DNA of 64,000 bases from Rhodospirillaceae bacterium (GCA_018667335.1 JABIVD010000029.1:91381-155380); one strand, 5' to 3'; positions 29,827-49,542 are shown, numbered from the stretch's first letter. Notes: a model not told the origin generated them from the sequence alone. A program made the numbers and translations.

Positions 29827-29853
29827 CGTCATACGCGGACTTGATCCGCGTCT
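29827..29853. repeat. hairpin repeat type B (GTCATACGCGGACTTGATCCGCGTCTC)
   Basis: Stem GCGCGGA/TCCGCGC. Family also at 45919, 46333, 47454. Confidence 0.7.
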
Positions 29854-29868
29854 CTCACAAAGACCGAG

Positions 29869-29899
29869 ACAAGATGCCCGGATCAAGTCCGGGCATGAC
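29869..29899. repeat. hairpin repeat type A (AGATGCCCGGATCAAGTCCGGGCATGACG)
   Basis: Stem GCCCGGA/TCCGGGC. Family also at 45856, 46270, 46376, 47392. Confidence 0.7.
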
Positions 29900-29920
29900 G
29901 ATTGTTGAAAGTGTGGAGTC

Positions 29921-30021
29921 TTACCCCTCATCCTGATGAGGGCCGCAAGGCTCATCTCGAAGGATAGGGTGATCGCTTCATGCTTCGAGACGGTGCTGCG
30001 CGCCTCCTCAGCATGAGGGGT
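29921..30021. repeat. about 100-bp element bounded by imperfect terminal inverted repeats (TACCCCTCATCCTGA ... TCAGCATGAGGGGTA), internal hairpins; MITE-like or structured RNA
   Basis: The left end is itself a hairpin (cctcatc-ct-gatgagg). Internal IR catctcgaag/cttcgagacg. Sits between convergent qor and rho. Confidence 0.4.
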
Positions 30022-30030
30022 AGCGGGAAT

Positions 30031-30060
30031 GCAAAAGGGCGGGTTTGAAACCCGCCCCTA
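30031..30060 (-). terminator. rho 3' terminator hairpin (GGGCGGGTTTCAAACCCGCCC + TTTTG on the minus-strand transcript)
   Basis: 7-bp GC stem followed by a T-run on the rho strand. An identical 27-bp copy is at 46472-46499. Confidence 0.6.
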
Positions 30061-30084
30061 CGCTATTCGATCTGGCTTCGATGC

Positions 30085-31341
30085 TTACTGGTTCATGGTG
30101 TCGTAGAAGTCGTCGTTGTTCTTGGTCGACTTCATCTTGCCGAGCAGGAACTCCATACCGTCCACGACCCCCATGGGGCTGAGGATGCGGCGCAGGACCC
30201 ACATCTTCGACAAGGCGTCCTTGTCGACCAGCAGCTCTTCTTTGCGCGTGCCCGACTTGGTGATGTCGATCGACGGCCAGACCCGCTTGTCCGACAGCTT
30301 CCGGTCGAGGACGATTTCCGAGTTACCGGTGCCCTTGAACTCTTCGAAGATGACCTCGTCCATACGCGAGCCGGTCTCGATCAGCGCGGTCGAGATGATC
30401 GTCAGCGAGCCGCCTTCTTCAATGTTACGGGCCGCGCCGAAGAAACGCTTCGGACGCTGCAGGGCGTTGGCGTCCACGCCGCCGGTCAGCACCTTGCCCG
30501 AGGACGGGACGACGGTGTTGTAGGCGCGGGCGAGGCGGGTGATCGAATCCAGCAGGATGACCACGTCGTGCTTATGCTCGACCAGGCGCTTGGCCTTGGA
30601 GATCACCATCTCGGCGACCTGCACATGGCGTGTGGCCGGCTCATCGAACGTCGAGGAGATCACCTCACCGCGCACCGTGCGCTGCATGTCGGTCACTTCC
30701 TCGGGCCGCTCGTCGATCAGCAAGACGATCAGATAGACCTCGGGATGATTGGCCATGATCGCCTTGGCGATGTTCTGCATCATCACGGTCTTGCCCGTGC
30801 GCGGCGGTGCGACCAGCAGCGCGCGCTGGCCCATGCCGAGCGGTGCCACCATGTCGATGACGCGGGTCGAGGGATCCTTCATCTCGGGATCATCGATCTC
30901 CAGCTTGATCTTCCGGTCGGGATAGAGCGGGGTCAGGTTGTCGAAGTTGACGCGGTGACGGGTGTGATCCACATCGTCGAAATTGACCTGGGCGACCTTG
31001 ACCAGCGCGAAGTAACGCTCGCCATCCTTGGGAGAGCGGATTTCGCCCTCGACCGTGTCGCCCGTGCGCAACGCGAAGCGGCGCACCTGGCTGGGTGAGA
31101 CATAGATATCGTCGGGACCCGGCAGAAAGTTCGATTCCGGCGAGCGCAGGAAGCCGAAGCCGTCCTGTAGCACTTCCAGAACACCGATGCCCGAGATCGG
31201 CACCTCGTCCTCTGCCAGTTCCTTGAGGATCGCGAACATCATGTCCTGGGTGCGAAGGTTGCTCGCCCCCTCGATCTCGAGTTCCTCGGCAAAGCTGAGG
31301 AGATCAGCCGCGGATTTGTCTTTCAGGTCTTGGAGTTTCAT
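30085..31341 (-). CDS. rho: transcription termination factor Rho
   Basis: N-terminus [41 protein letters not shown]. Walker A and RNA-binding domain. ORF track start 31386; ATG 31341 has a GGAAG SD; alternative ATG at 31350. Confidence 0.93.
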
Positions 31342-31603
31342 TGCTTCCATGGGGAGGCCAATTCTGTTTGGAAACCTACGCGCCACAACGGCTGGGAACC
31401 GCGTTTTCGGGGGCGTTGGTGATTGTCAGCGGAAGTTCGTGGTCGCCGACGGGAAACGCCGGAAGAAAACGACTTATGCGGAAGGGAGTGCGTGCGATGA
31501 GGACTGTCTTGTGCGCGCGCCGTTATTACGCACTTAGTGAGCGTGCCGCGTCAAGTCAATCCTCGCGACGGAAATGCTGCGGCAAAAACCCGGGGCCAAA
31601 AAC

Positions 31604-32053
31604 CTAGAACGGACGGGCGATAATCATCACCACGATCACGATCATCAGAACCGTCGGCACCTCGTTGGCGAGCCGGTAGGTCTTCGCGGGCCGGGTGTTT
31701 GCGTCGGCGGCGAAATCCTTCATCCATTTCGCGAACACATGATGGGCGACTGTCATCGCCGTCACCGCGGCCAGCTTGATCCAGATCCAGCCCGAACCCC
31801 AGTCCACGATCCCGGGCGTGCCCAGCATCAGGCCACCAAAAATGAACGCCGCGATCATCGCCGGGTTCATGATCGCGCGCAGCAGGCGCCGCTCCATGAT
31901 CTTGAAGGTCTCGGACTTGTCCGACCCCACCTCCGCGTCGGCGTGATAGACGAACAGGCGCGGCAGATAGAGCATCCCGGCCATCCAGGAGATCACCGCG
32001 ATCACATGGAGCGACTTGAACCAGGGATAGGCCGCAATCAGGAAATCACCCAT
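31604..32053 (-). CDS. hemJ: protoporphyrinogen IX oxidase HemJ (UPF0093)
   Basis: WFKSLHVIAVISWMAGMLYLPRLFVYHA is the conserved HemJ N-terminal motif. 4 TM. Adjacent to hemH-hemE. Confidence 0.8.
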   Translation of the reverse strand: MGDFLIAAYPWFKSLHVIAVISWMAGMLYLPRLFVYHADAEVGSDKSETFKIMERRLLRAIMNPAMIAAFIFGGLMLGTPGIVDWGSGWIWIKLAAVTAMTVAHHVFAKWMKDFAADANTRPAKTYRLANEVPTVLMIVIVVMIIARPF

Positions 32054-32059
32054 GGTTCA

Positions 32060-33124
32060 TCATCCGGTTTGTACCGCAGCTGGCATAGGGCATTTCGACC
32101 ATTCACCAGAACAGACGCGACCGCCGTTGCCGCTGCAGATATCGCAGCCCGCCGCGATGTTGCCGCGCACCAGATCGGCGAGCCCGGCGATGAACTTCGG
32201 GGCGGTGCCCACGGTCTGCACGCGAATATATTCAGGCACGCCCGCCCCCTCGGCCAGCGCACGATACTCGATATCGAGCTCGACCAGCGTCTCGGAATGC
32301 TCCGACACAAATGCGATGGGCACGATAATCACAGATTTCCCGTCCGCCCCGGCACGGGCGATTTCATCATCGGTCGACGGCCCGATCCATTCCAGCGGAC
32401 CGACCCGGCTCTGATAACAGCACAACCAGTCGAGCTCCTGTCCCAGGCTTTCCATCGCTGGATTGTTCATCACCGCGGCTGCCGTCTGTTCGACTTGGGA
32501 CTGGTACGGGTCGCCGCCCTCGACGATCTGCTTGGGGAGTCCATGGGCAGAGAACAAAATTCTTACATCTTTGGTTACACGTGTGCCCGCTTCCAGCGCG
32601 TCGGCCAGCAGATCCGTCACCGCACCGATGAAGCCCGAATCGGTCGGGTAACAGCACAGCGCCGTGACGGGAATGTCGAGCTTGCGTTTGCGTGCCACGC
32701 GCTCCCAGATCCGCATCATCGACCCGACCGTGGTGGTCGAGAATTGCGGATAAAGCGGCAGCAAGACGATGCGCTCAGGCGCACTCGCGATCACCTCGTC
32801 CATGACCGCATCGCACATGGGATGCCAGTAGCGCATGGCGACGAAGCATTTGAAATCTTCCCCGCCGCCCGTGTTCAGTACGGCCTCAAGCGCATCCGCC
32901 TGGGCGCGCGTGTTGGCGAGCAGGGGCGAACCGCCGCCGATATGGGCGTAGATCTCCTGCGCAATGGGCGCCCGGCGGCGCGAGATCAATTGTGCCAGAG
33001 CCCAGCGGATCGGTGCCGGCGCGCCGATGATCATCGGGTCGTTGAACAGGTTGAACAGGAACGGCCGGACATCATCGGGCCCGTCAGGACCGCCAAGATT
33101 GTAGAGGACGACGGCGGTTGTCAT
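32060..33124 (-). CDS. hemH: ferrochelatase with Cys-rich C-terminal extension (putative [2Fe-2S])
   Basis: MTTAVVLYNLGGPDGPDDVRPFLFNLFNDP N-terminal signature. C-terminal CDICSGNGGRVCSGEWSKC. ATG at 33122-33124. Confidence 0.9.
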   Translation of the reverse strand: MTTAVVLYNLGGPDGPDDVRPFLFNLFNDPMIIGAPAPIRWALAQLISRRRAPIAQEIYAHIGGGSPLLANTRAQADALEAVLNTGGGEDFKCFVAMRYWHPMCDAVMDEVIASAPERIVLLPLYPQFSTTTVGSMMRIWERVARKRKLDIPVTALCCYPTDSGFIGAVTDLLADALEAGTRVTKDVRILFSAHGLPKQIVEGGDPYQSQVEQTAAAVMNNPAMESLGQELDWLCCYQSRVGPLEWIGPSTDDEIARAGADGKSVIIVPIAFVSEHSETLVELDIEYRALAEGAGVPEYIRVQTVGTAPKFIAGLADLVRGNIAAGCDICSGNGGRVCSGEWSKCPMPAAVQTG

Positions 33125-33134
33125 GGCTTGTCGG

Positions 33135-35523: not shown

Positions 35524-36160
35524 CGGGATTGCCTCGCTGGTGATATCCGGCGGACCGGCGATCGTGCTGGCCTCCGCAAGTGCGGTTCGGACCCGGCTTT
35601 TATCTGCGGCGGGCGTACCCCACGAAATCATCCCGGCCCACATCGATGAGGCCGAGGTGCGCGACAGGCTTCTGGCGCAAGACACATCGCATGGTGTGAT
35701 CGCCGAGGTTCTCGCCGAGCTCAAGGCGCAGCATGTGGCGACAGATATGCTGGCGGGGCGCCCGGACACGATCATCCTCGGCGCCGACCAGATTCTGTCC
35801 TGCGAGGGTGATCTGTTCGAGAAACCGGCCGGCCTCGATGGCGTACGCGAACATTTGAAACGCCTGAGTGGTAAGGCCCATACGCTTCACGCAGCGGTTT
35901 GTGCCGTGCGCGGCGGGCAGGTGATCTGGCACTACAGTTCCGCGGCCAAGTTGCGTATGCGTACGCTTACGGATGGCTTTATAGAACGCTATGTGGACTG
36001 TGTCGGCGAGGCCGCCTGTGAGTCTGTCGGCGCCTACCTGCTGGAGGGCCTGGGCGCGCATCTGTTTTCGGAGATCGACGGGGATTTCTTCGGTATCCTC
36101 GGTTTGCCCCTGCTGCCGGTGCTGGAATTCCTGCGAAACGAAGATGTGGTGATGACATGA
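35507..36160 (+). CDS. maf: Maf-like nucleoside triphosphate pyrophosphatase
   Basis: IVLASASAVRTRLLSAAGV Maf N-terminal motif. Start overlaps the DUF299 gene stop. Confidence 0.8.
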   Translation: MMPPADGIASLVISGGPAIVLASASAVRTRLLSAAGVPHEIIPAHIDEAEVRDRLLAQDTSHGVIAEVLAELKAQHVATDMLAGRPDTIILGADQILSCEGDLFEKPAGLDGVREHLKRLSGKAHTLHAAVCAVRGGQVIWHYSSAAKLRMRTLTDGFIERYVDCVGEAACESVGAYLLEGLGAHLFSEIDGDFFGILGLPLLPVLEFLRNEDVVMT

Positions 36161-37032
36161 CGGGGAAACTGAAGGCCGGGGTCATGGGCTGGCCCGTCGC
36201 GCATTCATTGTCGCCGGCGCTGCACGGGCATTGGCTGGCGCGCTATGGCATCGCGGGCCGTTACGACGCGATTCCGGTCCGGCCCGAGGATTTGCAGGCG
36301 GCGCTCGCGGGTTTGCATGAACAGGGATTCCGGGGTGTGAACCTGACTGTGCCCCACAAGGAGGCCGCGCTGGGTTTCGTGGACGCGATCGACGACACGG
36401 CACGCCGGATCGGCGCCGTGAATACCATTATCCTGGGCGATGACGGGTCACTTTCGGCGACCAACACCGACGCCTACGGATTGATCGAGAATATTCGGGC
36501 CCTTGCGGCGGCGGCGCTGGCCTCGCGGTTCAACGACCGGCCGGCGGTTATTCTCGGTGCCGGTGGTGCCGCACGGGCCGCGGTGGTGGGGCTGGCGGAC
36601 GCGGGTGTCGCGGACATACGCATCGTCAACCGGACGGTCGCCCGTGCCGAGGCGCTCGCCGCCCTGGCGGACGGGTCCGGCGCTTCGGTGAGCGCGCAGG
36701 GTTGGGGTGCAGCGGCCGAGGTGCTGGCGGACGCGGGACTTTTGATCAACACCAGCACGCTCGGGATGGCGGGTCAGCCACCGCTGGAACTCGATCTTGC
36801 ACGCCTGCCGTCCGATGCGGTGGTCAACGATATCGTCTACGCGCCGCTGGAGACCGATCTGCTGGCGGCAGCGCGGGCCCGGGGCAACATCGTCGTCGAT
36901 GGGCTGGGGATGCTGTTGCACCAGGCGCGGGCGGGGTTTCGGGCCTGGTTCGGGGTCGACCCCGCGGTCGATGAGGAATTACGGACCGCCGTGCTGGCCG
37001 CGCGTGACGGCCGGGCAGGGTTGAAAACATGA
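36157..37032 (+). CDS. aroE: shikimate dehydrogenase
   Basis: GWPVAHSLSPALHG. NLTVPHKEAA. GAGGAARA Rossmann motif. Confidence 0.88.
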   Translation: MTGKLKAGVMGWPVAHSLSPALHGHWLARYGIAGRYDAIPVRPEDLQAALAGLHEQGFRGVNLTVPHKEAALGFVDAIDDTARRIGAVNTIILGDDGSLSATNTDAYGLIENIRALAAAALASRFNDRPAVILGAGGAARAAVVGLADAGVADIRIVNRTVARAEALAALADGSGASVSAQGWGAAAEVLADAGLLINTSTLGMAGQPPLELDLARLPSDAVVNDIVYAPLETDLLAAARARGNIVVDGLGMLLHQARAGFRAWFGVDPAVDEELRTAVLAARDGRAGLKT

Positions 37033-37646
37033 TGGTGCTCGGCCTCACCGGCTCGATCGGCATGGGCAAGTCCACTGCCGCGAACATGCTGCGTGCGATG
37101 GGTGTGCCGGTCCATGATTCCGACGCCACGGTGCACGGCCTGTTCGCCTTCGACCGGGATCTGCGCGAGGCCATATCGGCGCGCTTCCCGGGGGTCGTTA
37201 CGGACGACGGTGTGGATCGCCAGGCGCTGGGTGCGGCCGTCTTCGGCGACGATGCGGCGCGGCGCGATCTCGAGACGCTGGTCCATCCGCGCGTGCGTGC
37301 CGCCGCCGGCGCCTTTGTCCGGCACCACCGCCGGCAGCGCGCGGCGCTGGTCGTGCTCGATATCCCGCTCCTGTATGAGACCGGCGGCGAAGACCGGGTC
37401 GACGGGGTGATCGTGGTCTCGGCCCCGGCCGCCCTGCAGCGCCGGCGCGTGATGGCCCGGCCCGGCATGGACGCCGAACGGTTCGCCGGGATTCTCGCCT
37501 CTCAGATGCCGGACGGCGAGAAGCGGCGGCGCGCCGACTTTGTCGTGGAGACCGGCCTGGGCAAGGCCTATACTTTCCGCCGATTGAAACGGATCGTCAT
37601 GGCGGTCCGAACCGCCGCGCAGTCTGGCCCGCCCGGCACCAACTAG
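37029..37646 (+). CDS. coaE: dephospho-CoA kinase
   Basis: P-loop LGLTGSIGMGKST. HPRV motif. Confidence 0.88.
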   Translation: MMVLGLTGSIGMGKSTAANMLRAMGVPVHDSDATVHGLFAFDRDLREAISARFPGVVTDDGVDRQALGAAVFGDDAARRDLETLVHPRVRAAAGAFVRHHRRQRAALVVLDIPLLYETGGEDRVDGVIVVSAPAALQRRRVMARPGMDAERFAGILASQMPDGEKRRRADFVVETGLGKAYTFRRLKRIVMAVRTAAQSGPPGTN

Positions 37647-37652
37647 ACCAGG

Positions 37653-38357
37653 ATGGGCTCACACGTGCGCGAAATCATTCTCGATACCGAAACCACCGGC
37701 CTTGATCCCGCGAGCGGCGACCGCATCGTGGAGATCGGCTGCGTCGTGGCGCAGCACCATATCCCGACCGGCGAGACCTATCATGTCTACGTCAATCCGG
37801 AACGCGACATGCCGATCGAGGCGTTCAACGTCCATGGGCTGAGCGAGGAATTCCTGTCGGACAAGCCTGTCTTCGCGGAGGTCGTCGCTGCGTTTCTCGA
37901 ATTCATCGGCGATTCACAGCTGGTCATCCACAACGCCAGCTTCGACATGAAGTTCCTCAACGCCGAGCTCAAGCGGCTCGGCTTCCCGGTGCTCCCCATG
38001 GAGCGGTCGACCGATACCGTGGCACTGGCGCGGCGCACCTTCCCTGGCGCGCAGGCCAGCCTGGATGCGTTGTGCCGGCGGTTCGAGATCGACCTGTCCC
38101 GGCGCGAGAAGCATGGCGCGCTGCTCGATGCGGAGCTGTTGGCGGAGGTGTATCTGCAGCTGCGCGGCGGGCGCCAGCCCGATCTGGCGCTGGCCGGTAA
38201 CGAGACGAAATCCAGCGCAGGTCCGGCGATTGTCCAGCGCCAGGCCCGGCCCGCGCGACCGCACGCGCCGTCAGCCGATGAGCTGGCGGCCCACGCGACG
38301 CTGGTCGAGAGCCTGAACGGGTCGCTGTGGAACGCCCCCGATGATCAAGGGGGATGA
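37653..38357 (+). CDS. dnaQ: DNA polymerase III epsilon subunit (3'-5' exonuclease)
   Basis: Exo [14 protein letters not shown]. Exo II HNASFD. Exo III motif region. Confidence 0.9.
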
Positions 38358-38386
38358 TCAGGGGTGATGACTGGGGGTTTGGACGC

Positions 38387-39004
38387 CTAGAGTTCGAACT
38401 CGAACTTCTGCTTGTCGTCACCATTGCCACCGGCGTCGCCGCTGCCATTGCTGTCGCCATTGGCTTCGCCGTCGCCATTGGCTTCGCCGTCGGCTGCCGG
38501 CGCTTCACCGTCACCGGCTTCGGACTGAACCTGGGCGACCCGCTGCTGGTACATCGACATGAAATCGATCGGCTGCACGAGGAGCGGCGGGAAGCCGCCG
38601 TCGCGCACCGCATCGGCGACGATGGCGCGGGCGAACGGAAAGAGCTGGCGCGGCGCCTCGATATACAGCATCGGCGGGACATACTCGTCGGGGACCTCAC
38701 CGAGGGTGAAGATGCCTGCATAGACGATCTCGACGATGAACAGCGCGTCCGTGCCGGATGTGCCTTCGGCCCGCAGAGTCAGGGACACCTCGAACGATTT
38801 GTCCGCGATCTGGTCGGCGTTGACGTCGATGGCGATCTGTACGTTCGGCTCACCGCCCTGCTGGTTCAGGGACTGGGGCGCGTTCGGGTTCTCGAACGAG
38901 AGATCCTTCACATACTGGGCGTTCACAATCATCATCGGCGCGCCGCCGGCGTCCGTACCGTCGAGGCTCAGCGGCTTTTCCGGTGCTGCGTTTTCGTCGC
39001 TCAT
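38387..39004 (-). CDS. secB: protein-export chaperone SecB (acidic C-terminal tail)
   Basis: MSDENAAPEK...IVNAQYVKDLSFENP...FPFARAIVADAVRDGGFPPLLVQPIDF. ATG at 39002-39004; ORF track extends to 39112. Confidence 0.88.
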   Translation of the reverse strand: MSDENAAPEKPLSLDGTDAGGAPMMIVNAQYVKDLSFENPNAPQSLNQQGGEPNVQIAIDVNADQIADKSFEVSLTLRAEGTSGTDALFIVEIVYAGIFTLGEVPDEYVPPMLYIEAPRQLFPFARAIVADAVRDGGFPPLLVQPIDFMSMYQQRVAQVQSEAGDGEAPAADGEANGDGEANGDSNGSGDAGGNGDDKQKFEFEL

Positions 39005-39130
39005 GGCGTTTCCATATCGTTCTGAAGTGCGCGCAACAGCGCGGGGGTTGAAATTCGCGCATTGGCTAACACGGACAAGCGCTGCGGGACAACCGCGTCC
39101 GCGGAGAATCAACCCGGTCCGGCCCTGATT

Positions 39131-39166
39131 TCGGGGGTGGTTCCGGGGGTGGGCCCGGGGGTGGGC
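39131..39166. repeat. G-rich tandem repeat (ccgggggtgg x3) just downstream of fxsA
   Basis: Seen directly in the sequence. C-rich on the fxsA-secB transcript. Confidence 0.4.
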
Positions 39167-39715
39167 CTAGCGACCGCTGCCGATGCGTGGCGGCGGGTCG
39201 GACGGGTTGCGGTCGCCGTCATTGTGTTCGTCGTCCTTGCGTACGCCGAACTCCTCGCCGTCGATGACCGGCCCGCCGGGACCGGGTCCTGGCTGTGAAC
39301 CCGACCCCCGATCGAAACCGGCGCCCGTCGCGCCGTGCACGGAAAAATGAACGTTGCGTGAGCGGGCCAGCGCCGCCCAGACCCCGCGGCCGAGAACAAA
39401 ACGAAGAGGCGGGATCAACAGCGCGAAGCCGAGCGCGTCGGTCAGAAACCCCGGCGTGAGGAGGAGGAGCCCGCCGACCAGGAGGCAGACACCATCGAAC
39501 AGCTCGCGCACGGGGAGCTTCTGCTGGTCGAGCTCGGCCTGCGCGCGGGCGAGGGTCGCCATCCCTTGCTGACGCAGGAGCGCGGTCCCGATGAACGCCG
39601 TCAGAACGACGAGGCCGATCGTCGGCCAGACGCCGATCGAACCGCCGACCTGGATGAACAGGTAGATCTCGATCAACGGAATGCCGATGAACAGGAAGAG
39701 AATCAGGATGGGCAT
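39167..39715 (-). CDS. fxsA: FxsA-family inner-membrane protein
   Basis: MPILILFLFIGIPLIEIYLFIQVGGSIGVWPTIGLVVLTAFIGTALLRQQG is the conserved FxsA N-terminus. Confidence 0.75.
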   Translation of the reverse strand: MPILILFLFIGIPLIEIYLFIQVGGSIGVWPTIGLVVLTAFIGTALLRQQGMATLARAQAELDQQKLPVRELFDGVCLLVGGLLLLTPGFLTDALGFALLIPPLRFVLGRGVWAALARSRNVHFSVHGATGAGFDRGSGSQPGPGPGGPVIDGEEFGVRKDDEHNDGDRNPSDPPPRIGSGR

Positions 39716-39930
39716 TCTTGTTCTTTCATCGTGTTACCCCTATCTAGGAGATACCAGACAACGCACCGCCGGGGGACCGGCCTTGCAACCGCCGCTGGTA
39801 TCAGGCGGGACAAGAACGTAATGTTGGTACGGTTTAGACGGCGAGCAACCCGCTTCTGATCGCATTCGCAATGTTTCGCGATCTTCCAGGGGCGGCCCAT
39901 CAATAGAACCGACTGCGGAACGGACGGCGC

Positions 39931-40629
39931 GTGGCATTCTTAGACATTATCCTTCTGGCAATGGTAGCGGCCTTCCTGGTGTTTCGCCTGCGCAGCGTAT
40001 TGGGCAAGCGGACAGGCAACGAACGCCCACCCACCGATCCCTATGCTGGCCGCGACGGCACGGGCCAGCCCGAGGCGCCCGAAGGGCGTGACGACGGGAC
40101 GGTCGTCAGCCTTCCCGACCGCAGCGGCCAAAACGATGCGCAAAGCGACACCCCCAGCGACATTCCAGATGGCGCGCCGGCCACCGACGGTCTGAAGGCG
40201 ATTCAGGCCGCAGATTCGGCCTTTTCCGTGAGTGAATTCGTCGAGGGCGTTCGCATGGCCTTCGAGATGGTCGTCACGTCCTTCGCCAATGGCGATCGCG
40301 AGACCCTGCGGCCGCTGCTCAGCGACGAGGTCTACGAGAATTTCGCCGGCGCCATCGTCGATCGCGAATCGCGCAGCGAGACGATGGAAATGACCCTCGT
40401 CGGCATTCGTGAGGCCGAAGTGCTCGAGGCCACCATGGACGGTCGCGTGGCGTTCGTAACCGCGAAGATCGTCTCGGAACAGATCGAAGTGGTGCGCGAT
40501 GCGGCGGGTGAGCCGGTGTCGGGCGACCCCACAAAGGTCTCGACGGTGACCGACATCTGGACCTTTGCGCGCAACACCCGTTCGCGCAATCCGAACTGGA
40601 CGCTCGTCGCAACCGAAGCGCCGAACTGA
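39931..40629 (+). CDS. Tim44-like domain membrane protein
   Basis: N-terminal TM MAFLDIILLAMVAAFLVF. C-terminal Tim44-like domain (FSVSEFVEGVRMAFEMVVTSFANGD...WTFARN). Conserved secB neighbourhood in alphaproteobacteria. Confidence 0.75.
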   Translation: MAFLDIILLAMVAAFLVFRLRSVLGKRTGNERPPTDPYAGRDGTGQPEAPEGRDDGTVVSLPDRSGQNDAQSDTPSDIPDGAPATDGLKAIQAADSAFSVSEFVEGVRMAFEMVVTSFANGDRETLRPLLSDEVYENFAGAIVDRESRSETMEMTLVGIREAEVLEATMDGRVAFVTAKIVSEQIEVVRDAAGEPVSGDPTKVSTVTDIWTFARNTRSRNPNWTLVATEAPN

Positions 40630-40640
40630 GCCTGACGCCG

Positions 40641-41849
40641 GTGTTTGCCGCGCGAAATGTCTCGAAGACCCGATTTTCCATCAAGCCCGTCGTGCTGCTC
40701 GCCGGCATGATCGCGCTCGCGGCCTGCGAGACCGGGAAGACCCCGGCGCCGGATACGGCCACCACCTACACGCCCGTAGCCTTCGACACGTTGCCCGGAT
40801 GGGATGCGGACGCGCTGGCTGAAGCGCTTCCGGCCTGGCGGCAGTCCTGCTCGCGCATGGCGTCCCAGCCTGACGGCAAGAATATCGGCCCTGGCTCGGG
40901 CAATGTGGCGGGGACAGTTGCGGACTGGCGGCCGGTATGTGCCGGGCTGGCAGATCTTGCTGCGGGTGATTCCGCCGCCTTGCGCGGTTTCATCGAGGCC
41001 AATCTGGTTCCGCTCCGGGTTCAGGGCAAGACCGATGACCCGGGCCTGTTTACCGGATATTTCGAGCCGATCATCGAGGCGTCGCGCGAGCGCACGCCGA
41101 TCTATCACGAGCCGATCTATGCGCTGCCGCGCGACCATGTGTCGGTCCGGCTCGAGGCGTTCGATCCGGCCCTCAAGGGCCGCAGCGTCGTCGGCCGGGT
41201 CGAGGGCGGCCGGCTGGTCCCCTATCGCCAGCGCGGCGAGATCGAGGCGGGGGCGATCAACCAGACCGCCGATGTTCTGTTCTGGGCACGCGACATCCTC
41301 GATGTGTTCATCCTGCAGGTGCAGGGCTCGGGGATCGCCGCATTGCCCGACGGCACGCGCACCCGGATCGGCTTTGCCGGGCACAATGGCCACAATTACG
41401 GGTCCGTCGGGCGCTGGTTGATCGAGCGCGGCGAGCTGAGCGCCGGGCGCGCGGGATGGGAAGACATCCGCGCCTGGCTCGAGGCGAACCCGAAGATCAT
41501 GCGCGACACCCTGGCGGTGAACCGGCGATTTATTTTCTTCCGCGAGATCGATGGCGATGGGCCGACGGGCGCTGCGGGTGTGACCCTGACCGCCGAACGG
41601 TCCATGGCGGTCGACCCGAAGCATGTCCCGCTGAACGTGCCGGTCTGGCTGGATGCGGAGCATCCGGACGGGGAACAGCGCCTGCAACGCCTCATGCTGG
41701 CGCAGGATACGGGCAACGCCATACGGGGCGCGGTGCGCGGTGATTTCTACTGGGGGACCGGCCGCAACGCGCTCGACAAGGCCGGCCGCATGAAGAGCCG
41801 GGGCGCCTATTATATCCTCGTGCCGCGCGCGCTGGTGCCGTTAAGCTAG
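40641..41849 (+). CDS. mltA: membrane-bound lytic murein transglycosylase A
   Basis: Lipoprotein-like signal peptide LAGMIALAAC. MltA-domain motifs (LPGWDADALAEALPAWRQSC, FTGYFEP). C-terminal 3D domain. Confidence 0.8.
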   Translation: MFAARNVSKTRFSIKPVVLLAGMIALAACETGKTPAPDTATTYTPVAFDTLPGWDADALAEALPAWRQSCSRMASQPDGKNIGPGSGNVAGTVADWRPVCAGLADLAAGDSAALRGFIEANLVPLRVQGKTDDPGLFTGYFEPIIEASRERTPIYHEPIYALPRDHVSVRLEAFDPALKGRSVVGRVEGGRLVPYRQRGEIEAGAINQTADVLFWARDILDVFILQVQGSGIAALPDGTRTRIGFAGHNGHNYGSVGRWLIERGELSAGRAGWEDIRAWLEANPKIMRDTLAVNRRFIFFREIDGDGPTGAAGVTLTAERSMAVDPKHVPLNVPVWLDAEHPDGEQRLQRLMLAQDTGNAIRGAVRGDFYWGTGRNALDKAGRMKSRGAYYILVPRALVPLS

Positions 41850-41952
41850 TGGCGAGCCAGTGCCGGGCTGAGCGGGCTCTAGATCACCCTCCCCGGCCAT
41901 CTTGGACGGCGCGCGGAATGTGCTAAACAGGATGGAAATCAAGGAGAATGCG

Positions 41953-42726
41953 ATGAGCGACGGCCCGCGCGTGGCGCTGTTCGTAACCTGCCTGGTGGAC
42001 CTGTTCCGGCCGAGCGTTGGTTTTGCGGCGGTGAAGTTGATGCAGGACGCCGGATGTACCGTCGAGGTGCCCGAGGCGCAGACCTGTTGCGGACAGCCTG
42101 CCTACAATTCCGGCGACCAGGGCGACACGATCGCGATCGCCCGCCAGGTGATCGCCGCCTTCGAGGGCTTCGACTATGTGGTCGCCCCGTCGGGTTCGTG
42201 CGCCGGCATGATCTCCAAACATTATCCCGAGCTGCTGGCCGACGACCCGGACTGGGCGGCCCGCGCCACCGCGCTCGGCGAACGCACCCATGAGCTGATC
42301 TCATTCCTGACCGACGTGCTCGAGATCAAGGCCGTCGACGCGGCGTTCGCGGGCACCGTCACCTATCACGACAGCTGCTCGGGGCTGCGCGAGCTGGGCA
42401 TCCATGCACAGCCGCGTGCGTTGCTGGACGGCGTCGAGGGTCTGCATTTGCGTGAGCTCGAGGATTCCAATGTGTGCTGCGGCTTCGGCGGCACCTTCTG
42501 TGTGAAGTATCCGGATATCTCCAACAACATGGTCTCCAACAAGATGGACAAGATCGTCGCCACGGGTGCCGAGACCCTGCTGGCCGGCGACATGGGCTGC
42601 CTGATGAACATGGCAGGCAAGCTGCAGCGCGACGGCGCGAATGTGCGCGTGCGCCACGTCGCCGAGGTATTGGCCGGGATGGGCGATGAGCCGGCCATCG
42701 GTGAGCCACAAAAGGGCGAGGGCTGA
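41953..42726 (+). CDS. lutA: lactate utilization protein A (Fe-S oxidoreductase, CCG domains)
   Basis: RVALFVTCLVDLFRP and CCGQPAYNSGD CCG-domain motifs. AAGGAG SD 7 nt upstream of ATG 41953. Confidence 0.8.
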   Translation: MSDGPRVALFVTCLVDLFRPSVGFAAVKLMQDAGCTVEVPEAQTCCGQPAYNSGDQGDTIAIARQVIAAFEGFDYVVAPSGSCAGMISKHYPELLADDPDWAARATALGERTHELISFLTDVLEIKAVDAAFAGTVTYHDSCSGLRELGIHAQPRALLDGVEGLHLRELEDSNVCCGFGGTFCVKYPDISNNMVSNKMDKIVATGAETLLAGDMGCLMNMAGKLQRDGANVRVRHVAEVLAGMGDEPAIGEPQKGEG

Positions 42727-42731
42727 GCCTC

Positions 42732-44156
42732 ATGACCGTTCATTCCACAAGCCGCAACTTCAAGAACAACGCCCGGGATCAGCTCGCCAACGAGGATCTG
42801 CAGGCCGCCCTCAACAAGGCGCGGGGTCACTTCGTCGATGGCCGCGCAACGGCGCGGGACAATCTGCCCGAGTTCGACGACCTGCGTGACCAGGCCCGGG
42901 ACATCAAGGACCACACCCTCGAACATCTCGATTTCTATCTCGAGGCCTATGAGGAAAAGGTCCGCGAGTCCGGCGGCCATGTGCATTGGGCGCGCACGGC
43001 GGCGGATGCGCAGCGGATCGTCCTCGACATCTGCCGGTCGGTTGACGCCAAGCAGGTCAACAAGGGCAAGTCGATGATCGGCGAGGAGATCGAGATCAAC
43101 AAGGCGCTCGAGGCCGACGGCATTCGCCCGATCGAAACGGACCTCGGCGAATACATCATCCAGCTGCGCGGCGAACTGCCGAGCCACATCATCGCGCCGG
43201 CCGTGCATCTGACCAAGGCCCAGGTCGAGACGAGCTTCCGCGAGAACCACACCGAGCTCGATCCCGATCGGGTGCTCGAGGAACCGCTGAGCCTGCTCGA
43301 CGAAGCGCGTACCATTCTGCGCAAGAAATATTTCGAGGCCGAGGTCGGGATCACCGGGGCGAATCTTCTCATCGCCGAGACCGGATCCTCGATCATCGTC
43401 ACCAACGAGGGCAACGGCGATCTGTCGCAGCTGATCCCCAAGGTGCATATCGTGCTGGCGAGCCTCGAGAAGATCGTGCCGACCTTGGAAGACGCGGCCA
43501 CCATTTTGCGGGTGCTGGCACGTTCGGCCACAGGTCAGGAATTCTCCAGCTACACGACGCTCTCGACGGGCCCGAAGCGCGAAGAAGACCCGGACGGGCC
43601 CGAGCAGTATCACGTGGTCCTGCTCGACAACGGCCGCACCGACATGCTCGGCACCGAGTTCGAGGAGATGCTGCGCTGCATTCGCTGCGGTGCCTGCATG
43701 AACCACTGCCCGGTCTACCAGTCGGTCGGCGGCCACGCCTACGGCTGGGTGTATCCGGGGCCGATGGGCTCGGTCCTGTCGCCGGGGCTGATCGGCGTCG
43801 ACGAGGCCGGGCATCTGCCCAACGCCTCGACCTTCTGCGGCCGCTGCGAGGAAGTGTGCCCGATGCACATCCCGCTGCCGAAGATGATGCGCCACTGGCG
43901 TGAACGGGAATTCGAGAGCCATCTCTCGCCGGGCTCGGCCCGGGTTGGCCTCGGCGTGTGGGCGTTCTTCGCCCGCCGGCCGCGGCTGTATCAGATGGCG
44001 ACGGGCCTGCAGATGCGGATGCTGTCCTGGATGGGCCGCAAGCGCGGGCGTCTCTCGTCGCTGCCGCTGGCCAAGGGCTGGACCAAGTATCGCGAACTGC
44101 CCGCACCCCAGGGGCGCACTTTTCAGTCCCGCTGGAAATCCGGGGAGCGCGCCTGA
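42732..44156 (+). CDS. lutB: lactate utilization protein B (4Fe-4S ferredoxin-type, LUD domain)
   Basis: CIRCGACMNHCPVY and CGRCEEVCPM 4Fe-4S motifs. 474 aa. Confidence 0.85.
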   Translation: MTVHSTSRNFKNNARDQLANEDLQAALNKARGHFVDGRATARDNLPEFDDLRDQARDIKDHTLEHLDFYLEAYEEKVRESGGHVHWARTAADAQRIVLDICRSVDAKQVNKGKSMIGEEIEINKALEADGIRPIETDLGEYIIQLRGELPSHIIAPAVHLTKAQVETSFRENHTELDPDRVLEEPLSLLDEARTILRKKYFEAEVGITGANLLIAETGSSIIVTNEGNGDLSQLIPKVHIVLASLEKIVPTLEDAATILRVLARSATGQEFSSYTTLSTGPKREEDPDGPEQYHVVLLDNGRTDMLGTEFEEMLRCIRCGACMNHCPVYQSVGGHAYGWVYPGPMGSVLSPGLIGVDEAGHLPNASTFCGRCEEVCPMHIPLPKMMRHWREREFESHLSPGSARVGLGVWAFFARRPRLYQMATGLQMRMLSWMGRKRGRLSSLPLAKGWTKYRELPAPQGRTFQSRWKSGERA

Positions 44157-44881
44157 TGAGTGACGACTCCAGCAACGGTCGGGATCAGATCCTCTCCTCC
44201 CTGCGCCGCTCGCGCGGCCGGGACGGACCCGTCGACGAAGCCACGGCGGAGACGCTCCGTGCGCGGATCGCCGGGCACAAGCGCAACATCGTGCCCGCAC
44301 GAACCGACACGGATCACGCCGGCCTGGTCGATCTGTTCGAGACCATGGCCCAGAAGGTCTTCGCAACCACGACGCGGGTGTCGGACATGGCCGACGTGCC
44401 CGATGCGGTCGCCGACTATCTGCGCGGTGCGAACCTGCCGTCAGAAGTGGTGATGGCGCCGGACACGGATCTGGATGCCGCGCCCTGGGCCGAGAATTCG
44501 CTGCTCGAAATTCGCCGGGGCGTGCCCGACGAGCCCGATCAGGTGAGCATCACCTCGGCGCCGTCTGCCGTGGCCGAGACCGGCACGCTGGCGATGTATT
44601 CCGGCCCGGCCCACCCGTCGACCCTGAATTTCGTCCCCGAGACCCATGTCGTGGTGCTGCCGGCCAGCCGGGTCGTCAAATCCTATGAAGACGTGTTCGA
44701 TGCGGTGCGCGAACTGGCGGCCGATCCGGATTCGGGCCGTGGCGGCCTGCCGCCACGCACAGTGAACTTCGTCACCGGCCCGTCCCGCTCGGGCGACATC
44801 GAGCAGACCCTGTTGCTTGGCGCGCATGGCCCCCGGCGGCTGCACATCGTCATCGTCGAAGACGGCGCGGACAACGGCTGA
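44156..44881 (+). CDS. lutC: lactate utilization protein C (LUD domain)
   Basis: ATGA overlap with the lutB stop. Position and size match LutC. ORF track extends to 43958. Confidence 0.7.
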   Translation: MSDDSSNGRDQILSSLRRSRGRDGPVDEATAETLRARIAGHKRNIVPARTDTDHAGLVDLFETMAQKVFATTTRVSDMADVPDAVADYLRGANLPSEVVMAPDTDLDAAPWAENSLLEIRRGVPDEPDQVSITSAPSAVAETGTLAMYSGPAHPSTLNFVPETHVVVLPASRVVKSYEDVFDAVRELAADPDSGRGGLPPRTVNFVTGPSRSGDIEQTLLLGAHGPRRLHIVIVEDGADNG

Positions 44882-44889
44882 ACGCGGTC

Positions 44890-45480
44890 ATGTCGGCGCC
44901 CGGCAAGAAAAACGGCAACAAGGCGGATGACGACGACGATACGGATTTGTTTCGCCGCGCGCTCTCCGATGCCGCACCCCTGAAGCGACGGCGCCCGCAA
45001 CCCTCCGAGAAAAAGGCTGTCGCGGCCAAGCCAAAGCCTGCGAAGAAACCCGTCAAAAGTAAACCAATGATCACGCCGCCCGTCGCTGCGCCGCGCCCTG
45101 TCGCACGGCCGACCCCGCCGCCAGATATCGCCGCCAGCGACTATGCGGGTGTCGACCGACGCACCGCCGAACGGTTCCGACGGGGGAAGTTGCCCATCGA
45201 GGGGCGGCTCGACCTGCACGGTCTCTACCAGGACGCCGCCCAGGACGCCCTCACCCGCTTCATTACGGATAGTGCTGCCAGCGGCCGCCGGATGGTGCTG
45301 GTGATTACGGGGCGCGGGTCGCGCGAGGGCTCGGGCGTGCTGCGCGAGCGCCTGCCCCAGTGGCTCAACCAGCCGCCGTGCCGGGCGCATGTGCTGGCGT
45401 TCACCCCGGCGCGCCCGGAACATGGCCGCGACGGGGCCTTCTATGTGCTGCTGCGCCGCAAGCGTGGGGATAGAGGATGA
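44890..45480 (+). CDS. Smr-domain protein
   Basis: IEGRLDLHGLYQDAAQDALTRFITDSAASGRRMVLVITGRG Smr signature. Basic N-terminal region. Confidence 0.75.
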   Translation: MSAPGKKNGNKADDDDDTDLFRRALSDAAPLKRRRPQPSEKKAVAAKPKPAKKPVKSKPMITPPVAAPRPVARPTPPPDIAASDYAGVDRRTAERFRRGKLPIEGRLDLHGLYQDAAQDALTRFITDSAASGRRMVLVITGRGSREGSGVLRERLPQWLNQPPCRAHVLAFTPARPEHGRDGAFYVLLRRKRGDRG

Positions 45481-45836
45481 CGCCGTTCGGCGCGAAGGTG
45501 CGGGTGTATCGCGCAGAACGGAAGCTGACCCTGAAGGCGATGGCGGCGGATCTGCAGCTGTCACCGGCGTATTTATCGTCTCTTGAACATGGCTATCGCG
45601 GCCGCCCGTCCGAAGCCCTGGTGGTGCAGATCTGCGAGTATTTCAACCTGATCTGGGACGATTACGAGGAGATGCACCGGCTCGCCGCGTTGTCTCACCC
45701 CAAGGTCACGGTCGACACATCGGGCCTGACCGCGACCCACACGGAGCTCGCCAACACCCTGGCCGAGAAGGTGCGCGATCTGTCGGAACAGGACGCTGTC
45801 GCGATTCTCGCGCGGCTCCGCGGGGATTTGTTTTAG
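45477..45836 (+). CDS. XRE-family helix-turn-helix protein
   Basis: VRVYRAERKLTLKAMAADLQLSPAYLSSLEHG. ATGA overlap with the smr stop. Confidence 0.7.
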   Translation: MTPFGAKVRVYRAERKLTLKAMAADLQLSPAYLSSLEHGYRGRPSEALVVQICEYFNLIWDDYEEMHRLAALSHPKVTVDTSGLTATHTELANTLAEKVRDLSEQDAVAILARLRGDLF

Positions 45837-45855
45837 GGGGGCGGAACACCGTGTT

Positions 45856-45885
45856 GAGATGCCCGGATCAAGTCCGGGCATGACG
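45856..45885. repeat. hairpin repeat type A
   Basis: GAGATGCCCGGATCAAGTCCGGGCATGACG. Confidence 0.75.
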
Positions 45886-45918
45886 CAAGTGGGGTTAGTG
45901 GTGGACCAATACAAACCC

Positions 45919-45947
45919 GTCATGCGCGCACTTGATCCGCGCATCTC
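45919..45947. repeat. hairpin repeat type B
   Basis: GTCATGCGCGCACTTGATCCGCGCATCTC. Confidence 0.75.
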
Positions 45948-45951
45948 TGTC

Positions 45952-46239
45952 TCAGACCAGCGTGTCGTAGAGATCGGTCCAATCAGGATTGGTTGTTTCG
46001 ATAAGGCCTGTCTTCCAGGAACGCGACCAGTGTTTGATGGTTTTCTCACGCTGGATGGCATCACGGATGTCGTTGTGGGTCTCGACATAGACGAGGCGTT
46101 TCAGGCGGTAGCGTTGCGTGAACCCTTCGACGACGCCCTCGCGGTGTTCCCAGGCGCGACGCGCAATATCTGAGGTGACGCCCACATAGAGCGTCCCGTC
46201 GCGTCTGTTGGTGACAATGTAGACCCAGCCGCCCGACAT
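45952..46239 (-). CDS. GIY-YIG nuclease-family small protein (UPF0213-like)
   Basis: GWVYIVTNRRDGTLYVGVTSDIARRAWEHREG GIY-YIG motif. 95 aa. Flanked on both sides by A/B hairpin repeat pairs. Confidence 0.8.
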   Translation of the reverse strand: MSGGWVYIVTNRRDGTLYVGVTSDIARRAWEHREGVVEGFTQRYRLKRLVYVETHNDIRDAIQREKTIKHWSRSWKTGLIETTNPDWTDLYDTLV

Positions 46240-46269
46240 GGAATCGGTCCTTTCGGGCAGACCTTAGCC

Positions 46270-46299
46270 GAGATGCCCGGGTCAAGTCCGGGCATGACG
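46270..46299. repeat. hairpin repeat type A
   Basis: GAGATGCCCGGGTCAAGTCCGGGCATGACG. Confidence 0.75.
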
Positions 46300-46332
46300 C
46301 AGGTGGTTGGGTGCCGTGTTTTCCCTAGTACC

Positions 46333-46361
46333 GTCATGCGCGGACTTGATCCGCGCATCTC
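46333..46361. repeat. hairpin repeat type B
   Basis: GTCATGCGCGGACTTGATCCGCGCATCTC. Confidence 0.75.
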
Positions 46362-46375
46362 GCCGACACCGAGAC

Positions 46376-46405
46376 GAGATACCCGGGTCGAGCCCGGGTA
46401 TGACG
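46376..46405. repeat. hairpin repeat type A variant
   Basis: GAGATACCCGGGTCGAGCCCGGGTATGACG, with compensatory stem changes. Confidence 0.65.
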
Positions 46406-46471
46406 CACTAAAAAAGAGCGGGAGTGGCGGAGTGTGTTTGGTCGGTTGATTCCTGCCCCCGAAAAGCAGAA

Positions 46472-46499
46472 GGGGCGGGTTTGAAACCCGCCCCTACGA
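46472..46499 (-). terminator. terminator hairpin identical to the rho terminator (GGGGCGGGTTTGAAACCCGCCCC)
   Basis: 27-bp identity with 30036-30060. Lies just 3' of the minus-strand cyclase gene. Confidence 0.5.
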
Positions 46500-46526
46500 A
46501 CTTTTCGGATATGTAATGTCGAACGT

Positions 46527-47312
46527 TTAGTCGAACATCATCGCGACGCAGCGGATCCAGCCGCCTGACGCGCCCTTGATCTTCCACGGCATGCAGCTGA
46601 CCATGAAGCCGTGGTCGGGCAGCGTCTCCAGGTTGAGCAGCTTCTCCATGTGGCAGTAGGGCTGCTCGATGCCGGCCCAGTGGCCCTGCCAGACCGCCAG
46701 CGCATCTTTGTCGCGGGCATAGCTTTCCTGCTGCAGCGCGAACGGTGCGTCCCAGCCCCAGGCGTCGATGCCCGTCACCCGCACGCCATGGTCACGGGTC
46801 ATGAAGAGCGTTGCCTCCTTGCCCATGCCGATGCCGCGGGAGAGATATTCCTCGGTGCCGTAATACTCTGACGCCTTGGTGTTCACGAGCACGATGTCCA
46901 GCGGCTGCAGCTCATAGTCGATGCGCTTGAGCTCGGCCTCGATGTCGGACACCTGGACGATGTAGCCGTCGGGCATGTCGCGGAAATCGAACTTCACGGC
47001 CGGGCGATAGAACCAGTCGAGCGGCAGCTCGTCGATGGTCTGCATCGGGTTCCCGTCCTTGTCGTGGGAATGATAGTGCCACGGCGCGTCGATATGGGTG
47101 CCGTTGTGGGTCGTCAGGGTGACGATCTCCCAGGCCCAGCCCTCGCCATCGGGCAGGTCGACGGCATTCATGCCGGGGAAGAAGCTGGCCATCGCCTCGG
47201 CGTTCTCCGCCTGGCTCACATACTGGATCTTCGGGCGCATGATCTCGGGATCGACGATTGTGTCGTTGTCGAGCGCCATCGAGAGATCGATGATCTTTGT
47301 GGGTATCTGCAT
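46527..47312 (-). CDS. cyclase-family protein (kynurenine formamidase-like)
   Basis: MQIPTKIIDLSMALDNDT...TTHNGTHIDAPWHY is the putative-cyclase (His-x-Gly-Thr-His-x-Asp) signature. ORF track extends to 47417, with the extension encoded by a hairpin repeat. Confidence 0.8.
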   Translation of the reverse strand: MQIPTKIIDLSMALDNDTIVDPEIMRPKIQYVSQAENAEAMASFFPGMNAVDLPDGEGWAWEIVTLTTHNGTHIDAPWHYHSHDKDGNPMQTIDELPLDWFYRPAVKFDFRDMPDGYIVQVSDIEAELKRIDYELQPLDIVLVNTKASEYYGTEEYLSRGIGMGKEATLFMTRDHGVRVTGIDAWGWDAPFALQQESYARDKDALAVWQGHWAGIEQPYCHMEKLLNLETLPDHGFMVSCMPWKIKGASGGWIRCVAMMFD

Positions 47313-47391
47313 GGCTTGGTCTTCCCCTGAAGCGTGTTGATTGGTTGGCGCCAGTCTACGACGACGCAACGCAGCGGGGAAAGCTGTGCAT

Positions 47392-47421
47392 GAGATGCCC
47401 GGATCAAGTCCGGGCATGACG
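47392..47421. repeat. hairpin repeat type A
   Basis: GAGATGCCCGGATCAAGTCCGGGCATGACG. Confidence 0.75.
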
Positions 47422-47453
47422 GGGTTTTTGATGGCGCGGTTCTAATCCGTTTC

Positions 47454-47482
47454 GTCATACGCGGACTTGATCCGCGTATCTT
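47454..47482. repeat. hairpin repeat type B
   Basis: GTCATACGCGGACTTGATCCGCGTATCTT. Confidence 0.75.
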
Positions 47483-47504
47483 GTCCAGTTCCCGCGCGAA
47501 GCGC

Positions 47505-49372: not shown

Positions 49373-49466
49373 GGTAGCGGTCCGCGATCAGTCAGGGGGT
49401 GGTCAGTCGGGGTGGCCCTGAGTCCTGACGCATCCGGGCGACAGGCGCAATGGCCGCCGCCCTTCC

Positions 49467-49494
49467 ATGTGGGGCCGCAGGCGTGGGGATCAAG
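49467..49494 (-). promoter_or_regulatory. sigma-32 (RpoH)-type heat-shock promoter for hslVU
   Basis: On the minus strand: CTTGAT (49494-49489), N14, CCCCACAT (49474-49467), against the consensus CTTGAA-N13-15-CCCCATnT. About 95 nt upstream of the hslV ATG. Confidence 0.55.
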
Positions 49495-49542
49495 CCCTGC
49501 CGGGGTGCGCGATGGGCCGTCGCGCGCGGCCCAAGTCCGTGC

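Follow-up and report, generated by a model that had tools for sequence, protein, structure and literature searches.

A probable Ssn-type GIY-YIG nuclease gene flanked by CGTC-tagged hairpin repeats of two stem types in a marine Rhodospirillaceae bacterium

Hairpin units and the GIY-YIG gene they bracket

The stretch of Rhodospirillaceae bacterium DNA analyzed here (GCA_018667335.1, JABIVD010000029.1:91381-155380; the whole stretch of 64,000 nucleotides is called the window below) carries a family of short hairpin-forming repeat units and a small gene, bracketed by several of them, that is predicted to encode a single-domain GIY-YIG nuclease. Nine 30-nt units were located in the window with a degenerate pattern and with a generic detector that required CGTC, an 8-10-bp stem starting with AT (one mismatch tolerated) and a 4-6-nt loop. 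Each unit consists of an unpaired CGTC tag, a 9-bp stem that opens with AT, a 5-nt loop (CTTGA, or CTCGA in the variant unit A' at 46376-46405) and a 3-nt tail that begins with C (CTC or CTT). Seven of the stems are perfect and two have one mismatch. The tag precedes the stem in all nine units, and C directly follows an intact AT-closed stem in eight; in the ninth, at 29827-29856, the closing stem pair is broken (..GCGTCTCTC) and the C-after-stem position is less clear.

The units fall into two main types. The A-type stem, ATGCCCGGA, and the B-type stem, ATGCGCGGA, are distinguished by a C/G swap, with compensation on the opposite stem arm, and A' is a third variant with further compensated stem changes. 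Each unit is predicted to fold alone at -10.8 or -11.6 kcal/mol. The initial annotation of this DNA had recognized both consensus sequences and had described B as the reverse complement of A with a compensatory swap that preserves the hairpin; both descriptions hold at the positions given in it, and dinucleotide-preserving shuffles of the sequence yielded no matches.

The gene (45952-46239, minus strand; called ssn-like, or simply ssn, below) encodes a 95-amino-acid (aa) protein that matches Pfam PF01541 over residues 4-76 (E=1e-14), with no second domain detected. It has more than 5000 homologs, and in an alignment of 22 of them residues Y7, Y18, R28, H32 and E65 are invariant. The AF2 model is one compact GIY-YIG domain (pLDDT 91.6) whose best fold matches in the PDB are UPF0213, Slx1 and UvrC-N, all of them GIY-YIG domains; no Ssn structure is among these matches. 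An NCBIfam scan of the protein gave no specific model, only a sub-threshold match to a group I intron endonuclease model. The closest solved structures are the UPF0213/YhbQ proteins BH0048 (PDB 1zg2) and EF2693 (1ywl), which are likewise small stand-alone GIY-YIG domains of similar length, but the identity is only ~24-29%, the scores are weak (E=6e-5 by sequence, TM-score ~0.58), these proteins belong to another CDD family in the phylogeny of Chenal (2025; PMC11893778), and they are not reported to be flanked by hairpin repeats. The identical protein is found in metagenome-assembled genomes (MAGs) labelled Rhodospirillaceae bacterium and in many marine metagenomes, and its context, hslV-hslU-cyclase-GIY-YIG-HTH-Smr-lutCBA, is constant across 22 contigs.

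Three units lie upstream and two downstream of ssn, all within 170 nt of it, so the bracketing described in the initial annotation is correct, and seven of the nine units lie within 1.3 kb of the gene. On the downstream side the proximal unit is B-type (45918-45947, plus strand); it lies 4 nt from the stop codon with its tag pointing away from the gene, and a 32-nt variable spacer (45886-45917) separates it from an A-type unit (45856-45885, minus strand). On the upstream side the proximal unit is A-type (46270-46299, minus strand); it reads CGTCATGCCCGGACTTGACCCGGGCATCTC on the gene strand and its end lies 30 nt before the ATG. Next to it, across a 32-nt spacer, lies the B-type unit CGTCATGCGCGGACTTGATCCGCGCATCTC (46332-46361, plus strand), which is followed across a 14-nt linker by A', CGTCATACCCGGGCTCGACCCGGGTATCTC (46376-46405, minus strand). 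Farther upstream, in the spacer between hslU and the cyclase gene, an A-type unit (47392-47421, minus strand) pairs across 31 nt with the B-type variant CGTCATACGCGGACTTGATCCGCGTATCTT (47453-47482, plus strand). The two remaining units form a doublet between the convergent oxidoreductase and rho genes, where a B-type variant (29827-29856, plus strand) is the left half, an A-type unit (29871-29900, minus strand) is the right half, and the 14-nt linker occupies 29857-29870.

There are thus two kinds of junction between neighboring units: three with the tags inward, A..ATGACG-spacer-CGTCAT..B, and two with the tags outward, B..CTC-14 nt-GAG..A. The two tags-outward doublets have similar 14-nt linkers (..ACCGAGAC) and are 82% identical over 74 nt. 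The initial annotation had proposed A-spacer-B pairs at four loci with spacers of about 33 bp that differ between loci. Three such junctions do exist, and their spacers (32, 32 and 31 nt) are unrelated in sequence; however, there are nine units in all, 46270-46405 is a triplet, and the first locus (29827-29900), which had been read as A-33 nt-B, is in fact B-14 nt-A with the tags outward. The statement that all units lie at gene 3' ends is also right only in part, since 47392-47482 is 3' of hslU yet 5' of the cyclase gene and 46270-46405 is 5' of ssn.

Gene-repeat association, conservation and pairing

Is the proximity of the units to ssn a peculiarity of this genome? The initial annotation had suggested looking for enrichment of the repeats beside GIY-YIG genes elsewhere, and the outcome is strongly positive. 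Eighty independent ssn loci were picked from reference genomes and MAGs by peptide patterns of the protein only, and the generic detector found 323 units in them, of which 178 lie within 250 bp of the gene (85 upstream and 93 downstream). Unit density is 4.3-4.8 per kb within 250 bp of ssn and ~0.1 per kb beyond 1 kb, a ~45-fold difference, and permuted control tags gave ~3 matches each. The gene is flanked by units on both sides at 51 of the 80 loci and on at least one side at 75; Magnetospirillum, Phaeospirillum and Microvirga are among the genera with flanked homologs. Of 154 ssn flanks 121 (79%) are occupied, versus 18 of 217 other intergenic segments (8%) when uncovered segments are taken as a proxy for intergenic DNA (odds ratio 40, p=2e-46).

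The flanking units also follow a regular arrangement. Upstream of ssn, the nearest unit reads on the gene strand in 34 of 43 cases and typically stops 21-48 nt short of the start codon; downstream, the nearest unit reads on the other strand in 44 of 57 cases and lies 5-30 nt past the stop. The result is CGTCAT-hairpin -> gene <- hairpin-ATGACG, with the tags pointing away from the gene, and the window conforms to it. The base after the palindrome is C in all 84 flanking units from other genomes. The tail is CTN in 8 of 10 units at close homologs and CCA in 63 of 74 at distant homologs; tail type therefore follows protein relatedness, which fits paired specificities of protein and repeat. A universal rule that places A-type units to the left and B-type units to the right of the gene was considered and rejected, since most other genomes have the same type on both sides and the rule applies only in this lineage and its relative (below).

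Only the repeats accompany the gene from one genome to another: the genes that neighbor ssn in the window are found at none of the 80 other loci, and flanking DNA is common to only 41 of 3160 pairs of loci. The reciprocal relationship is quite different, as only one of 80 loci chosen by repeat sequence alone has ssn nearby, so most copies of the repeat are dispersed. The gene predicts the repeats; the repeats do not predict the gene. Exact unit matches occur in more than 119 metagenomic stretches among the matches listed.

A related species (locus L087) has an 85%-identical ortholog of ssn in the same synteny, with dS 1.48 and dN/dS 0.07. The gene is under strong purifying selection, and synteny that persists despite saturated dS, together with the low dN/dS, is the pattern of a vertically inherited host gene. 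The four units nearest ssn are kept in the relative with the same type and position (29 of 30 nt at 45918-45947, 46270-46299 and 46332-46361, and 27 of 30 at 45856-45885), and the spacers that separate them have been exchanged for others of different sequence and length. The A' unit is absent from the orthologous locus, and the hslU-cyclase spacer there holds a different CGTC unit where the window has its A-31-B pair. Repeat content thus turns over at orthologous sites while the gene stays. The second unit type of the relative, CGTCATGCCCGCGCAGGCGGGCATCCA, occurs there at 4975-4998 and 10718-10741 and has an 8-bp stem, a 4-nt loop and a CCA tail; it is close to the Neisseria NTS repeat, and one copy is orthologous in position to the 47392-47482 pair of the window. 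As it stands beside the first type, two CGTC families coexist in that genome.

A possible strain mosaic involves the 47392-47482 pair itself. When the window (35952-55685) is compared with one MAG contig (L001; GCA_018663685.1, contig JABJPW010000023.1), identity is 99.76% over 35952-47404 and 86-88% from 47453 on. The switch falls inside the pair, whose 31-nt spacer is swapped for another of equal length, and the A unit has a 34-nt insertion in its loop. Recombination at the repeat and a chimeric metagenome assembly would both account for it. At the 29.8-kb locus, eight strain contigs share the 268-nt oxidoreductase-rho gap of the window, as judged from gene coordinates only, which is uninformative on presence/absence polymorphism there.

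The two stem types are not combined at random. When the window and the 80 repeat-selected loci are taken together, 58 adjacent pairs are inverted, 48 of them with the tags outward, and none is homotypic (same stem arm in both units), versus 10.1 +/- 2.7 expected with random partners. Inverted pairs in this sample are strictly heterotypic. At the ssn-selected loci 13 of 94 pairs are homotypic and 15 are expected, but the shuffle mixes different genomes and the comparison is uninformative. We considered whether the swap serves to let each unit of a pair form its own local hairpin, and this is only partly supported: the predicted minimum free energy (MFE) structure of an A/B pair as isolated single-stranded DNA (ssDNA) is one long inter-unit hairpin (-31.5 kcal/mol) and not two local ones. 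That long hairpin is, however, 11 kcal/mol weaker than in a hypothetical homotypic A/A pair, so the weakening of long perfect palindromes is a plausible, though not a sufficient, reason for the heterotypic rule.

Relationship to Ssn systems and other explanations

Two published bodies of work bear on this locus. Di Nocera (2013; PMC3733652) catalogued a superfamily of CGTC-tagged repetitive extragenic palindromes (REPs), mainly alphaproteobacterial, with 8-9-bp stems that open with AT, 4-5-nt loops, 3-nt tails, and inverted dimers that are often heterodimers; these REPs were stated to have no dedicated transposase, and across more than 80 species surveyed neither a RAYT (REP-associated tyrosine transposase) gene nor any other transposase gene had CGTC units on its flanks. 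Chenal (2025; PMC11893778) described the Ssn family, single-domain GIY-YIG proteins of ~94 aa (CDD cd10448) whose genes are flanked by hairpin repeats, named NTS in N. meningitidis (CGTCATTCCCGCGMAVGCGGGAATCYRG) and generalized as the Ssn-related motif (SRM). Four purified homologs (the Neisseria, N. elongata, N. wadsworthii and Wolbachia enzymes) bind the repeat as ssDNA only and cleave the sense strand only, a few nt 5' of the repeat, and RNA is not bound. Binding depends most on the C that follows the palindrome and cleavage most on the three bases that precede it, a change of stem sequence can abolish activity even when the hairpin is kept, and mutation of Y6, Y17 or E64 abolishes cleavage by the 94-aa SsnA of N. 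meningitidis (CAX49033). In that species the system lowers transformation by repeat-bearing DNA (PMC11893778). A literature search found no paper on the Ssn family later than this one.

The 95-aa gene is very probably an Ssn-type nuclease gene and the nine units its cognate Ssn-related motifs, that is, CGTC-tagged REPs. As in the Ssn/NTS system, there is a ~94-95-aa single-domain GIY-YIG protein, oriented hairpin repeats stand on either side of the gene, most repeat copies are far from the gene, and the repeat has the order CGTCAT, GC-rich stem, short loop, stem, C-led tail (compare the NTS above with CGTCATGCCCGGACTTGATCCGGGCATCTC here). The spacing of the catalytic Tyr/Tyr/Glu residues is the same; from their numbering Y7, Y18 and E65 would be equivalent to Y6, Y17 and E64 of SsnA, with an offset of one residue (95 versus 94 aa). 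The protein is below the 150-aa limit for the family, and its flanking units are inside the 500-bp limit on both the 5' and the 3' side. The SRM search expression, HGTCWYN(0-2)YYVSBRHN(0-5)WNVSBRGN(0-2)RNCYNB, matches three A-type units exactly, among them the upstream-proximal one at 46270-46299 (shuffled sequences gave a mean of 0.62 matches and a maximum of 3), and when read by eye the remaining two A units depart from it at the last flanking base only. The system here differs in its host, represented by a marine Rhodospirillaceae MAG, in its 9-bp stem, 5-nt loop and CTC tail, and in having two co-occurring stem types that form strictly heterotypic inverted pairs.

The fit to the CGTC-tagged REPs is at the superfamily level, with families CGTC-3 and CGTC-4 closest (PMC3733652), and bears out the BIME/REP-like character proposed in the initial annotation (BIME, bacterial interspersed mosaic element). 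Shared features are the CGTC tag, the 9-bp stem opening with AT, the 5-nt loop, the 3-nt tail, a predominance in Alphaproteobacteria, an intergenic location, and inverted dimers that are mostly heterodimers; the differences are that an associated gene is evident here and none was reported there, and that the tail is CTC in place of the commoner CCA. Seen in this way, the locus is a further example of the system published in 2025, on repeats catalogued in 2013, and is not a new kind of system. Four features seem to go beyond both papers: heterotypic pairing, B units that lie outside the motif, position-specific conservation of unit type around ssn, and a possible recombination junction within a pair.

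By analogy with the characterized enzymes, Ssn would act only on a single-stranded unit folded as a hairpin, a state that replication forks, transcription bubbles or incoming ssDNA could provide. Recognition would involve the stem sequence, the GTC left unpaired in the tag and the C that follows the palindrome, and hydrolysis would take place a few nt 5' of the tag, so that only the 5'-CGTCAT... strand would be cut. If the cut is strand-specific in this manner, the predicted cuts in tags-inward pairs fall inside the 31-32-nt variable spacers, on opposite strands, and those of the tags-outward doublets and of the core A->ssn<-B unit fall just outside. For the 95-aa protein itself, ssDNA-specific binding, cleavage and the cut position are inferred from the literature. 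Two candidate cellular roles lead: Ssn may restrict recombination by ssDNA that bears the repeats, as in N. meningitidis, or it may, as a domesticated element, maintain or spread the repeats, as has been proposed for RAYT/REPIN.

Several observations weigh against assigning the locus to the Ssn system in this way. None of the four B-type units tested against the SRM expression matches it, the failure being at the YY stem position (the swapped position), and in view of the published effect of stem changes binding or cleavage of the B units may differ or be absent. The long inter-unit hairpin predicted for A/B pairs could mask sites in them. Natural transformation is the only context in which a biological effect of Ssn has been demonstrated, and it is not known for this host.

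The initial annotation had also suggested that the bracketed gene and its repeats may form a small mobile or recombinogenic unit. As architecture this matches the insertion sequence (IS)-like NTS-ssnA-NTS arrangement, for which the Ssn authors themselves note the IS analogy and the parallel with RAYT/REP/BIME (PMC11893778). A stronger version would make the family actively mobile, with A->ssn<-B as an IS-like autonomous copy, the gene-less A/B doublets as derivatives of the miniature inverted-repeat transposable element (MITE) kind, and the GIY-YIG protein as mobilizer. The inverted terminal units have their tags outward, and the 74-nt tags-outward doublets match the gene-bearing unit in the arrangement of their ends and share a linker. 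Other ssn loci have none of the neighbors found in the window (0/80) and seldom share flanking DNA with one another (41/3160 pairs), some genomes have several copies (L017 and L068 on one contig; L020 and L070 in one MAG), and repeat content differs at orthologous intergenic sites between related species. We nevertheless regard active mobility as unlikely. The exact protein is found in one genomic context only, and its many copies, considered as evidence of mobility, were rejected as such because all 22 contigs have the same neighborhood; the 85%-identical ortholog lies in the same synteny with saturated dS and a dN/dS of 0.07; and neither target-site duplications nor empty sites were identified. 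The chemistry of GIY-YIG enzymes is hydrolytic, without a covalent DNA intermediate, so such a protein could not carry out strand transfer alone. Since cleavage affects just the sense strand, each strand of the core unit would be cut once, rather than one strand twice. Mobility is possible at long range; at short range it is disfavored by synteny, purifying selection and hydrolytic chemistry, and the gene behaves as a syntenic, vertically inherited one.

A more speculative extension of the Ssn assignment, which we consider doubtful, is that the two stem types are functional left and right ends and do more than keep long palindromes from forming, that Ssn is a mobilizer or recombination initiator of CGTC REPs, and that the heterotypic doublets are non-autonomous derivatives and recombination junctions. 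The units around ssn can be read as two doublets of the same orientation, (B-spacer-A)-ssn-(B-spacer-A), an arrangement conserved in the relative with saturated synonymous divergence. There are then two sense-oriented sites per strand, both of them A on the gene strand and both B on the other, from which an ssDNA-only nuclease could release a single-stranded segment that contains ssn together with one A and one B unit. A hint of doublets as recombination junctions comes from the strain mosaic breakpoint within the 47392-47482 pair. If this were true, Ssn would be the missing mobilizer or recombination initiator of the CGTC REP superfamily.

A different explanation is that the units act mainly at the RNA level, as terminators or as stabilizers of mRNA 3' ends, and that their adjacency to ssn is incidental. 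They are indeed stable hairpins, most follow a coding region (as in the gap where the oxidoreductase and rho genes converge), and enterobacterial REPs stabilize upstream mRNA (discussed in PMC3733652). However, no T-run follows the hairpins, a terminator scan did not call the units, no Rfam family matches in the window, and the cyclase and rho genes have their own GC-hairpin/T-run terminators between stop codon and units (46495-46471 and 30034-30062, respectively), so the initial annotation's suggestion of a terminator or mRNA stabilizer does not stand as the primary role. A conserved unpaired CGTC tag, a C that never varies after the stem and a strand-specific orientation around ssn are marks of protein-DNA recognition, RNA is not bound by Ssn (PMC11893778), and a terminator role would leave the 40-fold preference for ssn flanks over other intergenic segments unexplained. 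We judge a mainly RNA-level function to be improbable.

If the units were classical REP/BIME elements, a RAYT (an IS200/IS605-type tyrosine transposase) encoded elsewhere in the genome would service them. Short tagged palindromes, inverted doublets and clustering would be shared, and the BIME analogy is also drawn in PMC11893778, but we dismiss this as highly improbable since the tag is CGTC and not GTAG, no transposase gene, RAYT or other, had flanking CGTC units in the survey of more than 80 species (PMC3733652), and the flanked gene is a GIY-YIG gene at 75 of 80 independent loci. The parallel with REP/BIME/REPIN-RAYT systems is still instructive: both have a single-copy, vertically inherited nuclease gene, inverted tagged hairpins dispersed as intergenic doublets, recognition of an ssDNA hairpin, and left and right unit types (like the Y and Z REPs of E. 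coli BIMEs). They differ in chemistry (GIY-YIG hydrolysis versus the covalent intermediate of HUH/Y1 enzymes), in the tag, and in that no transposition has been demonstrated for the system considered here.

The assignment to the Ssn system links two literatures, that of the 2013 CGTC REPs, which lacked a dedicated enzyme, and that of the 2025 Ssn ssDNA nucleases. It also places the gene-plus-repeat unit in a free-living marine lineage, where it is vertically inherited and strongly selected and where the putative recognition sites are conserved position by position. For enzyme discovery, the natural A/B pair offers two closely related candidate substrates with which Ssn specificity can be approached.

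Effects on gene annotation and other features of the window

The repeats also affect gene calling, as the initial annotation had pointed out. The longest open reading frame (ORF) of the cyclase gene (46527-47417, 296 aa) starts with MPGLDPGI inside the A-type unit at 47392-47421, and public annotations call a 261-aa protein; the inflated start is the ATG of the CGTC-ATG tag. Many database homologs of the Ssn-like protein are annotated at 118 or 131-132 aa rather than 95 aa. These longer homologs are probably mis-called starts inside the upstream repeat, because an upstream unit that ends 46-48 nt before the true start (loci L007-L086 were considered) would put the ATG of its CGTC-ATG tag in frame and add 23 codons. 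The repeats thus explain spurious N-terminal extensions from CGTC-ATG, in the cyclase and probably in the ~118-aa Ssn homologs.

Convergent to ssn, at 44890-45836, lie a gene for a protein with an Smr domain (a nicking-endonuclease domain) and an overlapping gene for an HTH_31 regulator. Both are syntenic with ssn in the related species and absent from the 80 other ssn loci, and no functional link to ssn is evident.

A second, unrelated inverted-repeat element (29917-30025) adjoins the repeat doublet at 29.8 kb, between the oxidoreductase stop codon and the rho terminator. In it CCCCTCATCCTGATGAGG (29924-29941, plus strand) faces CCCCTCATGCTGAGGAGG (30003-30020, minus strand), each is extended by similar sequence, and the element occurs once in the window. 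Finally, the 29-nt sequence AAGGGGCGGGTTTGAAACCCGCCCCTACG is present at two unlinked sites, 30034-30062 and 46470-46498, that are 97% identical. On the minus strand each site forms a GC hairpin with a T-rich run behind it, the first site directly downstream of rho and the second directly downstream of the cyclase gene, and the two look like copies of a repeated intrinsic-terminator module.

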